From Candidatus Helarchaeota archaeon (GTDB taxonomy: Archaea; Asgardarchaeota; Lokiarchaeia; Helarchaeales; RDOG01), in the NCBI GenBank assembly GCA_029838215.1, contig JALGVI010000013.1:1-44921 (forward strand): a stretch of DNA of 44,921 nt, in the 5' to 3' direction. The notes under the pieces were generated by a model. It did not search any database, had not been told where the DNA came from, and saw only the letters and a list, made by a program, of their open reading frames with translations. Positions 8,823 to 12,352 of this stretch are shown here, one piece after another; positions within the stretch are counted from its first letter, which is position 1, and each line of letters starts with the position of its first letter. The translations under genes and the position numbers were made by a program.

Positions 8823-9382
8823 TCTTATTGCATGAGATTGAACCGCGTTTTTCTTTTATTAAAGCTTCGTTTTCTCGAGAATAAGGAAACACGGAATCAA
8901 GATTTAAAGATCATTTAATTCATCGAATTTGCTTGTTTTTCGTCACTTCATTACGCATTTATGTCGGATTTGTTCCGTAAAATATTTAAGTTTGGCTTTA
9001 TTTATGTACATGTGCATTGGTCTGGCATGAGCAAATGAAGTCGTCATTTCTCACGTTTCTTCACTTCCAAGACATCGATGGAAACCATGATAAGCCCGTT
9101 TCTTTCTTTCCGTTGCCATTCCTTCGATGTAGCAAGATGAAAAATTAGCACGTTTCGTCGAATTAAAAGCAAGAGATCAGTTATTAACGCAAATTTGAAT
9201 CCAATTCGATAATCTCACTTCCCGTTTACTTCAATATTCGAGAATAAAAGTAAGATATTTCAATAAAAGGCTTTAACGCCCAAAGACGGAGATTTACCAC
9301 GTTCAAGAGTCAAAAAATCAAGTTATCTCCAGAATCTTATTTCAATTATTTCCATAAAATGTCCAATGGCACTTTCAGCTCA

Positions 9383-9532
9383 TCATGCAAGATCAATGCA
9401 TTTTTTTTTCTGCTTAAAATCAATGGCGTGTTTTCCTTCAATCAGGTTCTTGACAATTTCCTTTGCTTTAACATTATTTGGAGAATCCTTATTATATGCA
9501 TGAACCAGAATATTAGTATCTATTAGTTTCAT
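9383..9532 (-). pseudogene. vapC: Truncated VapC/PIN toxin (49 aa, not in the ORF track)
   Basis: The minus strand reads MKLIDTNILVHAYNKDSPNNVKAKEIVKNLIEGKHAIDFKQKKKCIDLA*, a classic PIN N-terminus (IDTNILV.A). It overlaps the antitoxin 3' end by 20 nt. The rest of the PIN domain is absent. Confidence 0.8.
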
Positions 9533-9764
9533 ACAATTCGTCCCTCGTTATCTCTATTGGGGTGCCCAATGAAATTCCTTCATTTAGATCCTTTAATGCA
9601 TCCCTATTTAATTCGTCTACAGTATTAAATATGATTTCAATTCTATTTCCGAGTTTATTAAGGAAAATCTCGTCATTATCATGTAAATCCATGTTCTTGT
9701 GAAGTTTGGGTGGTAATTTTACATACCAAGAGTTCCCTATCTTCTTGATCTTTGATTTTTGCAT
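9513..9764 (-). CDS. AbrB/MazE/SpoVT-family antitoxin (VapB-like)
   Basis: KIKKIGNSWYVKLPPKL...DEIFL swapped-hairpin signature, directly upstream of the PIN fragment. Confidence 0.85.
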   Translation of the reverse strand: MQKSKIKKIGNSWYVKLPPKLHKNMDLHDNDEIFLNKLGNRIEIIFNTVDELNRDALKDLNEGISLGTPIEITRDELYETNRY

Positions 9765-9790
9765 GAAATCTCGTAGTTAATTTTTGCATA

Positions 9791-9804
9791 AAAAGTTAAC
9801 TTTT
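9791..9804. promoter_or_regulatory. Perfect 14-bp palindrome AAAAGTTAACTTTT, probable antitoxin operator
   Basis: Lies 27-40 nt upstream of the antitoxin start, where TA autorepression operators normally sit. Confidence 0.5.
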
Positions 9805-9930
9805 CAAATTTTGTACTCGTAGCTTATTGACAGATAATAGCTTCTTTTTATCAAAGCTTTTAACGATAAAATTAAAAGAATCGAAAAATTTTTTATTCTT
9901 GAAAAAAGTTGAAAAATGGAGTCATGAAAA

Positions 9931-10365
9931 ATGCGGTATGAATTGGAAGATTTTGGAGTTTCAATTGATGTGAAGGAGTGGGCTCACAAATATTTCAAGG
10001 AACATAGAAGACACGTGTTTAGAAAGGACCCTGAAGAACCATTTCCTAACTTGCAGGTGCGAGTTGATGATGTTGCAGAAAGTAATCTGCATGAATCCAC
10101 GGATGTTTTAGTAGAGACCATAAAAAAACAATTTCCAGATGAAGTCAGGATTGAAGATGTTCAAAAAAGTAGGATTAAGGATTTTCCGGCGATTTCAATG
10201 CGTGTAAATGGAATTGAAGAGAATGGCTTGGAATTGATGATGTTAAATTATATCATTTCAACGGGTGAAAAACTGATAATGCTTCGTTTCATCTTAAAAA
10301 CGGAGCAGTTTGAAACACATGTAGATGAAATTCAAGAAATAGCTCAAAGCATAGAAATAATTTGA
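9931..10365 (+). CDS. Hypothetical protein, probable PsbP/Mog1/DcrB-like fold
   Basis: Pattern of strand, helix, strand hairpins (KIKDFPA-like SRIKDFPAISM, MMLNYII, LIMLRFI) and a terminal helix ending IAQSIEII. No signal peptide. Confidence 0.5.
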   Translation: MRYELEDFGVSIDVKEWAHKYFKEHRRHVFRKDPEEPFPNLQVRVDDVAESNLHESTDVLVETIKKQFPDEVRIEDVQKSRIKDFPAISMRVNGIEENGLELMMLNYIISTGEKLIMLRFILKTEQFETHVDEIQEIAQSIEII

Positions 10366-10369
10366 AAGG

Positions 10370-10402
10370 AATCGAAGTAAATTCGATTGACTTCTTTTTT
10401 TT
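10370..10402 (+). terminator. Hairpin followed by an oligo-T tract
   Basis: AATCGAA-GTAAA-TTCGATT followed by T8, immediately after the stop codon at 10365. Confidence 0.5.
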
Positions 10403-10496
10403 CTCTATTTTTGTTACGTGTTATTCTCGTGATATTCGGTTTCTAATCTTTTTTTTGTAATAGATCAGGTGGTGACGATTGAGAAGACGTGATTAA

Positions 10497-11780
10497 ATGA
10501 TGCCTAAAAATGATATTTCTGGTCTTGAGGAAGCAACGACAGAGCCAACGGGTTTAGATTGCTTGCAAGGGCTTGATTTTAACGCGACCATGAGCGGAGT
10601 CTCAGGTTTGCGAAGACCTTTAAATCCTTTAGGCGTCGATGAGTTAAATGAAATCAGAGTCATGAATTTTGAGTTTGATATGTATCTCAAGAATCTCTTG
10701 GAATATCGATTGGAAGATGTCATAAAATTCGGACGGCAATTTTCGCTTGACATCCTTGTTAATTATCTAAAAGATGATTTAAATTTTGGCAATCCTCTAT
10801 ATTTTGATTCTTATTTGAGCATAATCCAGCAATATGGACTTGCAGACGTTAAAGTCATTAACGGTCAAGGAAAACAGGCTTTATCAACGGGATTCAATTT
10901 GGCTTTCTTTGGGGATCCCGGCACCGGAAAAACATTTGCCATTGATGATATTATTCGTGGGAATGAGTCAAACGGCATTGAGCCGCATGGATTACCCGGA
11001 AGGAATCGTTTCTGTGGGGGAATGACGGCACCTCGATTTATTCGTATTGGAGAGGCATATCACGATCTAAAATTTAATTTCATAGTGCCCGAATTTAATG
11101 ACTGGTTCAAATATAAGGGAATGATCGAACCATTAAAACTGGCAATGGAGCACAAGCAGCTTCGATATGAGATTAAAGATGAAGCGATCGGTCCTTATGA
11201 ATTCACTTCATTTTTTTCGGTGAATTATAACGTAAAGACAAAGCTTGGTCGAAGCAATACAAGGCGAAATTACAAGGTCACGGTTTCGGATCCGAATTTC
11301 AATGCGATTGAAGATAGAATGCTTTGCCGGCTTCACGTATTAACGAAGAACAGATACAATGCAATAATAGATAGCCAGAGGAGGATGTCATTAGGGCTTG
11401 TTTCGATGCATTTGGCAAAAAAGATCCGGGATCACGTCACGCTACTTCACGCCATACAGACATCCCATCATTTAACAGCGAAAGAGTTTCCATCCAAACC
11501 CGTCTTGCTCACGGACAATGTTTATGAAAAATTGGAGGATGCGAGGCACCACCTGTTCAATGAATTGCCTGAAGATACGATTCAATTTAGTCCGCGATTA
11601 GAATTTCGAGCCATCAAGTTGGCTTGCGCTGCTTCCTTATTGACGCATTTTCAGCAGGATGATTACTTGCTCATAACAAAGCAGGCACTCAAGCTAGCAA
11701 TTCGATTTTTCATTGAAGAAGCATTATTGAGATCAGGAAGCGATGCGGATATCGAGAAAATTCTTTCGAGGATTTTCTAA
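10497..11780 (+). CDS. Divergent MCM-like AAA+ ATPase (motor domain only)
   Basis: Walker A GDPGTGKT (10911-10934), Walker B-like IVPEFND, LKLAME (MCM IHEAME), Arg-finger-like EDRM and sensor-2-like SPRL. Confidence 0.7.
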   Translation: MMPKNDISGLEEATTEPTGLDCLQGLDFNATMSGVSGLRRPLNPLGVDELNEIRVMNFEFDMYLKNLLEYRLEDVIKFGRQFSLDILVNYLKDDLNFGNPLYFDSYLSIIQQYGLADVKVINGQGKQALSTGFNLAFFGDPGTGKTFAIDDIIRGNESNGIEPHGLPGRNRFCGGMTAPRFIRIGEAYHDLKFNFIVPEFNDWFKYKGMIEPLKLAMEHKQLRYEIKDEAIGPYEFTSFFSVNYNVKTKLGRSNTRRNYKVTVSDPNFNAIEDRMLCRLHVLTKNRYNAIIDSQRRMSLGLVSMHLAKKIRDHVTLLHAIQTSHHLTAKEFPSKPVLLTDNVYEKLEDARHHLFNELPEDTIQFSPRLEFRAIKLACAASLLTHFQQDDYLLITKQALKLAIRFFIEEALLRSGSDADIEKILSRIF

Positions 11781-12352
11781 TTGAAAAATGCATCCAGCGT
11801 TTTCGCCTTGCTTTTCTTCTTTTTCTTCTTTCGGGGCTTTGACGCTACAGGTTTTTTCTTTTTAATCTTCTTCGGCTTCTCTTCTTCAACTTGGAGTTTT
11901 TTCTCTTGTTTCTTTGGCTTCTTTGTCTTTGGTACTGTTTTGGTTTTAACTTTAGCGGGTTTTTTCATTACGTCGCGAGAAATCGGTTTTACTTCAAGAG
12001 GTTTTGGTGGCGGTGGTTTCTCAATGATTAGGGGCTCTGTTTTTGGGAGATGTTGCAAGGGTTCTTCTTCGACATCCTGTAATAAATTGAAATCAGGAGA
12101 CCAATCAAGAGGGAATGGAGGACTCCAAATATCTGCATTTTTAAAAATTAGGAATCCGTTTTCACGACTTACGAAACCCTCTTGAAGTGCAAGATGAAGT
12201 ATTTTTTTTGCATCCGTGAAGGAGCACCCTTCGAAATGGTCGTAACACAAACCGAGAATGAATTCATCTTCCGTAATCTTGAATTTGTTTTTAATACGAA
12301 AAGGAATGGATGAGCTCCAAAGCAGGTCTTTTCTGGAAAGAACCATGACCAT
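11777..12352 (-). CDS. DUF2240-family archaeal protein with a Pro/Lys-rich tail
   Basis: ITEDEFILGL...AKKILHLALQEGFV...PLDWSP core and a low-complexity Lys-rich C-terminus ending TLDAFFN. Confidence 0.7.
   Translation of the reverse strand: MVMVLSRKDLLWSSSIPFRIKNKFKITEDEFILGLCYDHFEGCSFTDAKKILHLALQEGFVSRENGFLIFKNADIWSPPFPLDWSPDFNLLQDVEEEPLQHLPKTEPLIIEKPPPPKPLEVKPISRDVMKKPAKVKTKTVPKTKKPKKQEKKLQVEEEKPKKIKKKKPVASKPRKKKKKKSKAKTLDAFFN

Follow-up and report, generated by a model that had tools for sequence, protein, structure and literature searches.

The window analysed here is a 44,921-nucleotide stretch of a Candidatus Helarchaeota genome (GenBank assembly GCA_029838215.1, contig JALGVI010000013.1, positions 1 to 44,921 of the forward strand), and the gene in question occupies 10497..11780 on its plus strand. 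According to the open reading frame (ORF) listing and its translation, this is a single ORF encoding a protein of 427 amino acids (aa), which the ORF, its family, an AlphaFold2 model and fold matches identify as an MCM-fold AAA+ ATPase in a short, Helarchaeales form. An original prediction, made from the letters alone, had described the product as a minimal MCM-like motor. The motif strings on which it relied were all found in the 427-aa translation: LSIIQQYG at residues 107-114, FNLAFFGDPGTGKT at 133-146, GGMTA at 174-178, IVPEFND at 196-202 with Pro198 occupying the Walker B Asp position, LKLAMEHKQLRYEIK at 213-227, EDRM at 272-275, SPRL at 365-368 and ITKQALKLAIRF at 393-404. The distance from GMTA to Walker B, given there as about 20 aa, is 19 residues to P198-E199, compared with 28 in an Asgard MCM. 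We consider it reasonably probable that this ATPase is a partner-less, N-terminally truncated member of a conserved MCM-fold family, and that it works as a ring-forming, non-replicative nucleic-acid motor.

The AlphaFold2 model of the ATPase was built from a 14-sequence alignment and reached a pLDDT of 74.6 and a pTM of 0.78. All features below lie on the plus strand. Residues 1-43 (10497..10625) form a poorly conserved tail that is predicted to be disordered (pLDDT 27-38); the tail cannot be aligned to the long forms of the family and occupies the place of their ~190-aa helical and winged-helix module. Residues 44-114 (10626..10838) make up the four-helix N-terminal bundle of the motor (helices 44-70, 72-81, 84-94 and 98-114), which ends in IIQQYG. 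This bundle pairs with the MCM segment before the P-loop (...SIAPSI.G...LFGG), as hhalign columns 37-113 correspond to MCM 240-312. A small beta-hairpin at residues 119-130 (10851..10886; DSSP strands 119-121 and 127-130) precedes strand 1 and might be equivalent to some MCM element. Strand 1 leads into the P-loop with the Walker A motif GDPGTGKT (residues 139-146, 10911..10934), which aligns to MCM GDPGxGKS and in which G139, P141, G142, T143, G144 and K145 are invariant in family alignment A1. The signature loop of the family, HGLPGRNRFCGG (residues 164-175, 10986..11021), contains two invariant Arg; it was delimited by the invariant columns H164-G175 and by hhalign, in which it stands in for the MCM APRG.YTSGKG..AAG segment.

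Helix 2 (residues 176-190, 11022..11066) is without the beta-hairpin insert, as seen in the model and in the hhalign gaps. In the model, the helix runs uninterrupted over residues 178-188 and is followed directly by the Walker B strand at 192-197. The Walker B sequence FNFIVPEFND (residues 193-202, 11073..11102) carries Pro198 at the Asp position and retains Glu199, which is invariant in A1 and nearly so in the wider alignment A2, being lost only in the degenerate member P0198. Helix 3 (PLKLAMEH, with an MCM-like AMEQ motif) and the pre-sensor-1 beta-hairpin then follow (11124..11201; DSSP, hhalign to MCM AIHEAMEEQTV). The hairpin strands (221-226 and 229-235) with an invariant GPY lie between helix 3 and strand 4 at pLDDT 61-70. 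Strand 4, SFFSVNYN (11205..11231), holds the sensor-1 Asn, assigned by conservation: across 35 diverse family members N245 is invariant and N243 nearly so. After a low-confidence loop (248-264), helix 4 carries R274, the presumed arginine finger, within DPNFNAIEDRM (residues 265-275, 11289..11321). The block does not vary in A1, and R274 is almost constant in A2, where distant members have LSRL or MSRC, resembling MCM LSRF. Strand 5 and an all-helical lid (residues 284-427, 11346..11777) complete the fold. The lid is defined by the model helices and by VIA alignments that reach residues 411-427, and it includes FSPRLEFRA (364-372) with the presumed sensor-2 residue R367, also nearly invariant. 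The catalytic set of K145, E199, N243/N245, R274 and R367 is thus invariant or nearly so among the same 35 members.

Fold searches by three independent routes agreed and placed MCM first by a clear margin. In Foldseek against the PDB, the best 50 matches were all MCM chains, with E values of ~1e-8 and a TM-score by query of ~0.5. VIA-align, a method independent of Foldseek, was run against 48,161 representatives; eleven MCM or MCM8-9 entries scored Z 17.3-20.4 with 276-329 residues aligned, followed by BchI (14.7), RavA (14.0), BrxL (13.3), ComM (12.8), MoxR (12.6) and Cch (10.6), and the remaining AAA+ clades all had Z 8.8 or less. Ranks 1-16 contained only MCM, BchI, RavA, BrxL, ComM and MoxR (Z 12.6 or more). 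MCM, MoxR/RavA, BchI, ComM and dynein share the pre-sensor-II insert clade of AAA+ proteins. The nearest structures of the ATPase all come from that clade, with a clear gap beyond, and the modelled fold fits it; no other AAA+ clade claims the protein. In the ESM Atlas, unnamed clusters of the family itself came first; of the six clusters that remain, five carry PF00493, with TM 0.59-0.65.

The motif pairings were repeated by hhalign, in which the family (35 sequences) was compared with 11 intein-free MCMs, 8 MoxR-like and 6 ChlI/D-like proteins from Asgard genomes. The probabilities were 69.8% for MCM (E 4e-5), 57% for MoxR over 257 columns and 17% for the chelatase set. IIQQYG/LFGG, Walker A, PHGLPGRNRFCGGMTA/APRGLYTSGKGSTAAGLTA, IVPEFND/CIDEFDK and LKLAMEH/IHEAMEE were paired in register, and gaps of 6 and 4 residues fell exactly at the helix-2 insert hairpin of MCM. 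A permissive extension of low confidence further paired R274 with the Arg of SRF and R367 with the sensor-2 Arg (ITPRQL). The claim that the helix-2 insert hairpin is deleted is borne out by the continuous helix 178-188 together with this 10-residue gap. Likewise, no Zn finger or OB fold precedes the motor, since residues 1-43 are disordered and neither the model nor the neighbourhood holds an OB/Zn N-domain. As also predicted, there is no C-terminal winged helix: the protein ends ~14 residues past the last lid helix, and the VIA alignment to PfMCM-AAA, which has no winged helix, extends to residue 414.

The best structural match is therefore MCM, represented by PfMCM-AAA (4r7z), Mcm6 in 3ja8, M. 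kandleri MCM (3f8t) and MCM8/9. Both share an N-terminal helical bundle, a P-loop core and a helical lid, and their motifs come in the same order: QQYG/LFGG, GDPGTGK[TS], G[ML]TA, hhhh-x-EF, AME[QH], the pre-sensor-1 hairpin, the sensor-1 Asn, an Arg in the xxR[FM] block and the sensor-2 P-R. However, the ATPase differs from MCM in four respects: the helix-2 insert hairpin is absent, Pro replaces the Asp of Walker B, and neither an OB/Zn N-terminal ring nor a C-terminal winged helix is present. The invariant HGLPGRNR loop of its family replaces the GKGSSAAG segment of MCM, an ArsR-like winged helix in the long forms takes the place of the MCM N-tier, and the family is accessory and rare whereas MCM is universal.

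A word-indexed search over 5.8 billion proteins gave 1344 family matches at E<=1e-3. With these homologues and its conserved key residues, the ORF is no product of chance. An exhaustive phmmer search over 1.84 billion 50%-identity representatives gave only 106 family representatives, and none of those scanned has a named ATPase family. Hence, the family is compact and isolated. Its members are 50-57% identical to the 427-aa ATPase across phyla, the closest (78% identity) being encoded in a metagenome-assembled genome (MAG) labelled Helarchaeales. The bulk belongs to Bathyarchaeia; other archaeal hosts are further Asgard groups (Njordarchaeales and Ranarchaeia), Aenigm-, Woese- and Micrarchaeota, Thermococci, Methanofastidiosia and Methanomicrobia, and a few bacteria (Stahlbacteria, WOR-3, NPL-UPA2, Planctomycetota) carry it as well. 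The family profile scores E 7.6e-213 on the gene. Four blocks are invariant in A1, namely HGLPGRNR[YF]CGG, FNFIVPEFNDWFKY, DPNFNAIEDRMLC and FSPRLE. All four signature blocks of the family (HGLPGRNR[YF]CGG, FNFI[VI][PT]EFNDWF, DPNFNAIEDRM and FSPRLE), invariant or nearly so in A1, occur in the 427-aa ATPase. Most members have P at position 198; a branch with a zf-AN1 finger has T there, and the most distant ones have D, E or S. The peculiarity of Walker B is hence a feature of the family, in which the catalytic Glu is retained. The family appears undescribed, as no account of it was found in the literature searched.

The usual forms of the family have 560-605 aa (typically ~570) and an N-terminal helical and winged-helix module. 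Residues 1-205 of a long form were modelled (pLDDT 89.7) as a helical subdomain with a short hairpin and a winged helix of the ArsR/SmtB type, which matched ArsR/SmtB proteins at a VIA Z of ~10 over residues 94-184. One branch has the zf-AN1 finger in place of this module. The Helarchaeales copies (the 427-aa ATPase, P0003 and P0004) have only the non-conserved tail and no winged-helix module; all three share the truncation. The original prediction of an MCM-like motor is supported; it did not include that the protein is a truncated member of a large, conserved family in which the N-terminus normally forms a winged-helix module. A family-profile search of the whole genome matched only the ATPase gene, over profile positions 152-542; the N-module is therefore not encoded separately, and a split gene with its N-domain elsewhere in the genome was rejected. 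A FastTree tree of the motor region sets the three short forms beside a 570-aa Ranarchaeia protein and near the long forms of Methanofastidiosia and Thermococci. The short state is therefore most simply a loss, and on this sequence evidence the Helarchaeales copies have probably lost the N-module. The 427-aa copy is the most stripped-down form of the family.

The idea that short forms are common was rejected. One apparent short form, P0112, appears to be a split gene with a 146-aa ORF upstream: in that Bathyarchaeia MAG (L150:1741-5143), a coiled-coil protein of 543 aa is followed by the 146-aa ORF and a 380-aa motor ORF. P0034 is a genuine short form of 395 aa. The long-form N-module was also seen without a motor in 640-aa and 226-aa ORFs of two Asgard genomes (G023:C1:119163-119732, L148; G090:C67:6622-7119, L147).

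ORFs were called and clustered in 85 loci in order to survey the neighbourhoods of the relatives. In most Bathyarchaeia, at 47 loci that all come from this group, a coiled-coil protein of ~550 aa is encoded directly upstream on the same strand, with gaps from -30 to ~+100 nt. This partner (e.g. L014:1535-3211, alignment A3) has globular ends and a coiled coil of ~230 residues, and it matches no Pfam or PADLOC family. At seven loci, the gene directly upstream of the motor gene encodes a PglX-like N6-adenine methylase fusion of ~900 aa (N6_N4_Mtase and NmeDI_C; PADLOC PglXI E 1.9e-63), overlapping it by 4 nt in two loci and lying 1-2 nt away in the rest. The hosts include Woesearchaeota, Micrarchaeota, Methanosarcinales and Stahlbacteria, and their ATPases form one clade, bacteria included. 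At two further loci, of the AN1/short branch, an Eco57I/MmeI-type enzyme of ~1130 aa is directly upstream, and one of the two ATPases is the 395-aa short form P0034. In the methylase-linked branches, the motor gene trails the fusion by 14 nt or less, or overlaps it by a few bases. The remaining loci have unrelated housekeeping neighbours, and the long forms of Ranarchaeia, Thermococci and Methanofastidiosia, which are the nearest branches, have no methylase neighbour.

Because methylase-fusion and coiled-coil genes precede the motor gene in sister branches, the family gives the impression of a portable motor module that serves restriction-modification-like systems or other forms of DNA handling. 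The methylase fusions directly upstream are the reason for linking the family to DNA, and inteins in two members were also counted for this link. The inteins are in P0130 and P0149 (Intein_splicing, one with LAGLIDADG) and are inserted near the Arg-finger block or just after Walker B.

A parallel to the PglX-linked long branch is BrxL of BREX types 1 and 4 (8emc; PMC10164562, PMC12839542), in which DNA-binding domains and an MCM-family core are likewise found beside PglX. BrxL consists of an HTH, an OB and an MCM-family AAA+ domain and is encoded near PglX, and the type-4 protein also has no C-terminal extension (PMC12839542). We regard the parallel as one of architecture only. BrxL carries a sigma-HTH and OB and usually a Lon-like domain, whereas the ATPase family has a winged helix or nothing; its Z of only 13.3 against the ATPase is below that of MCM; and PADLOC BrxL profiles matched neither the 427-aa ATPase nor a long form. 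Unlike BREX, the methylase-linked modules consist of two genes and are not accompanied by BrxC or PglZ, and no BREX genes were found near the ATPase gene. MoxR/RavA, BchI and ComM (YifB) are of the same clade, with a pre-sensor-1 hairpin and an MCM-like lid arrangement, but they retain the helix-2 insert and score lower than MCM. Pfam AAA_3, AAA_5 and Mg_chelatase did not match the ATPase, and no vWA or chelatase partners were found nearby. The MCM-like helicases of mobile elements, such as Cch of SCCmec (5dgk), are likewise stand-alone MCM-fold motors outside the replisome. However, Cch reached a Z of only 10.6, and these proteins are recognisable helicases on mobile elements, whereas the ATPase family is nearly absent from viral contigs and the Helarchaeales copy sits in conserved chromosomal synteny.

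A pattern scan for the signature loop found relatives in 322 of ~185,600 species genomes. Of the 121 sampled Asgard genomes, the present one alone has the motor; two others matched through the N-terminal module only, in other proteins. For a Bathyarchaeia reference, 13 of the 151 genomes of its class carry the motor, always as a single copy. IMG/VR (2.9 million viral contigs) contained one relative, and a viral origin was rejected on that count. The gene is accessory and sporadic and not typically viral. Compared with a 73%-identical Helarchaeales relative, the motor has a dN of 0.20 with synonymous sites saturated (pS 0.86), and the first 45 codons have a dN of ~1.0. The motor core is under purifying selection. 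The low dN of the core together with the intact catalytic residues argues against a decaying remnant, and the possibility of a decayed remnant of a long-form gene was set aside accordingly. A search of sequencing runs listed no RNA run with the gene; its only match was a small share in one hydrothermal-vent DNA run.

The Helarchaeota genome (3.6 Mb, 170 contigs, 94% complete) has one canonical MCM, an ORF of 686 aa on contig C57 (PF00493 E 6.5e-96). A six-frame PF00493 search of the genome found only this gene and not the ATPase gene. In agreement with the original prediction, the ATPase is therefore not the replicative helicase, nor is it a piece of a split canonical MCM. As side observations, the genome's own MCM is uninterrupted, and many canonical MCM genes of Asgard genomes (L101-L116) are ORFs of 1000-1785 aa in which PF00493 matches in 2-4 pieces, the pattern expected of multiple inteins.

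Two partners of the sister branches are missing from this genome, as neither the coiled-coil protein nor the PglX-like fusion has a homologue in it, at 94% completeness. With no partner at the locus, the ATPase copy would work alone or with an unlinked factor. An upstream 144-aa ORF (9931-10365) was considered as a partner and rejected. Its single homologue comes from a Helarchaeales MAG, and there a peroxiredoxin gene of opposite strand lies between this homologue and the ATPase gene, with which it forms no operon. The 144-aa ORF also shows no relation to the 240-aa ORF that holds this position in another relative, to the coiled-coil protein or to the N-domain of the long forms.

In the reading that we prefer, the motor would assemble into a ring, as its structural relatives do. 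ATP would be hydrolysed at the sites between subunits, where R274 would act in trans. To grip DNA or another nucleic acid and move along it, the motor may use its pre-sensor-1 hairpins and perhaps also the invariant GRNR loop, and this movement would serve a non-replicative transaction.

Several results weigh against this reading. The model was built from 14 sequences only, and its pLDDT is 53-79 over residues 140-280. Sequence libraries recognise the ATPase as neither MCM nor any AAA+ family. No significant match was obtained from Pfam, NCBIfam, PADLOC, PHROGs or phmmer against all PDB chains, and the family HMM found no AAA+ match among PDB sequences, giving only a weak match of the long-form N-terminus to the winged helix of Csa3. 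PF00493 did not match the ATPase even at E<=1, although it detects MoxR-like and chelatase-like Asgard genes (E 1e-4 to 1e-10). Judged by sequence, those families are therefore nearer to MCM than the ATPase is. For MCM, hhalign gave a probability of only 70%, against 57% for MoxR. The helix-2 insert, which is one of the DNA-contacting elements of MCM, and the Walker B Asp are both missing. Neither translocation along DNA nor ATP hydrolysis can be taken for granted. A hint at partners that are proteins and not DNA could be seen in the zf-AN1 N-terminus of one branch, and the locus itself has no methylase, nuclease, coiled-coil partner or DNA-binding domain. The profile-profile match is weak and PF00493 is blind to the ATPase; the MCM assignment is consistent with the sequence but rests mainly on the predicted fold. 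A predicted complex of two copies of residues 44-427 with ATP scored 0.00 and was given no weight either way.

The main rival explanation is that the ATPase is a protein-remodelling enzyme of the MoxR/RavA type, that is, a chaperone-like ring acting on a protein complex. MoxR, RavA and BchI are in the same AAA+ clade at Z 12.6-14.7, the hhalign match to MoxR covers 257 columns, and the absent DNA hairpin, the zf-AN1 finger of one branch and the copy's own lack of a DNA-binding domain would all suit such a remodeller. However, MCM exceeds the MoxR-type structures by 5-7 Z units and fills the best 50 Foldseek matches, the majority of the family has a winged-helix module, DNA methylase fusions accompany two branches, and no vWA or other MoxR-type partner gene lies near the ATPase gene. 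We thus consider this explanation quite unlikely. It is extremely improbable that the protein is a fragment or paralogue of the replicative MCM, whether through a split gene or as a back-up helicase subunit. Its best fold match is indeed the MCM ATPase tier; but a full-length canonical MCM is encoded on another contig, PF00493 fails on the ATPase gene, the N-terminus of the family is a winged helix and not OB/Zn, and none of the 120 other Asgard genomes sampled yielded the gene.

The remaining alternatives concern defence. The ATPase could be the surviving motor of a restriction-modification-like module that has lost its methylase or nuclease partner and is either still used with unlinked genes or decaying. 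The sister branches with PglX-like or Eco57I-type fusions would agree with this, as would a very patchy distribution despite ~50% identity across phyla and domains, and a slot directly upstream that varies, being taken by a VapB/truncated-VapC remnant in this window and by a ParA-like gene in the relative. Nevertheless, the truncation and the chromosomal synteny are common to three Helarchaeales copies, the motor core is under purifying selection, a PglX-like or c1 homologue is absent from the 94%-complete genome, the nearest long-form branches also lack a methylase neighbour, and only one match was found in 2.9 million viral contigs. We therefore judge such an origin of this copy to be rather unlikely. 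An equally tentative proposal concerns the family as a whole, which might be the motor of unnamed ATP-dependent restriction-modification-like systems built from a PglX-type or Eco57I-type fusion and a ring without the helix-2 insert, with the stripped copy kept for a transaction on host chromosomal DNA. By analogy with the sister branches, from which all of its support comes, we infer a possible link to restriction-like defence. A defence or mobile-element origin, which the original prediction had offered as a possibility, is supported only for the methylase-coupled sister branches and not for this locus.

Known MCM-fold motors are the replicative helicase, MCM8/9, mobile-element helicases and BrxL. 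With a partner-less, truncated MCM-fold motor as the preferred reading, the present family would add a further MCM-fold lineage, undetected by current sequence profiles, that does without the helix-2 insert and the Asp of Walker B, both regarded as central to the action of MCM. The bare motor of Helarchaeales might be a simple object for probing the MCM-type ATPase tier without an N-terminal ring, and the PglX-type and Eco57I-type links of sister branches suggest that archaea and candidate-phylum bacteria have an ATP-driven restriction-like system that is still unexplored. Within this one genome, the significance is modest, as the gene is an orphan accessory gene.

The chromosomal surroundings include genes for FEN1, a cation-efflux protein, ABCE1, GtrA and a GT4 glycosyltransferase, among others. 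The order ABCE1-GtrA ... ATPase-DUF2240 is common to the window and a Helarchaeales relative, and the three Helarchaeales copies share this synteny. The slot from GtrA to the ATPase gene (window 8823-10496, compared with L143:2427-4777) differs between close relatives: a ParA/MinD-like gene and a 240-aa ORF occupy it in the relative, and an AbrB-like ORF, a PIN remnant and the 144-aa ORF, which is acidic, occupy it here. The decayed toxin-antitoxin module said to adjoin the ATPase gene was recovered as an AbrB-like ORF of 83 aa at 9513-9764 (-), followed by a cut-off PIN-type N-terminus. Together they make up a decayed VapBC-type pair at 9383-9764 (-). The AbrB/SpoVT-like ORF has a KIGNSWYVKLP motif and no Pfam match; the PIN-type N-terminus (MKLIDTNIL..., MKLIDTNILVHAYN...) overlaps its stop and ends at a stop codon after ~48 residues, as read in stop-to-stop frames.

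Between the upstream stop codon and the ATG of the ATPase gene lies a 131-bp spacer (10366..10496, no strand assigned). Reading of its sequence revealed T-runs after the upstream stop and, ~35-45 nt ahead of the ATG, a stretch rich in AT. The gene is probably transcribed on its own. On the other side, the expected convergent DUF2240 gene was located at 11777-12352 (-), where PF09999 scores 25.2 bits against a cut-off of 22.3; its stop and that of the ATPase gene overlap by 4 nt. The convergent genes found downstream in Bathyarchaeia (clusters c3, c9 and c6) are unrelated to it and were rejected as candidate partners. The DUF2240 protein has a long Lys/Pro-rich linker and, as had been noted, a PIP-like end, KTLDAFF within the C-terminal KTLDAFFN. 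A 59%-identical homologue from Helarchaeales has a different linker and ends in KTLKDFFD, and the PIP-like tail is therefore conserved.

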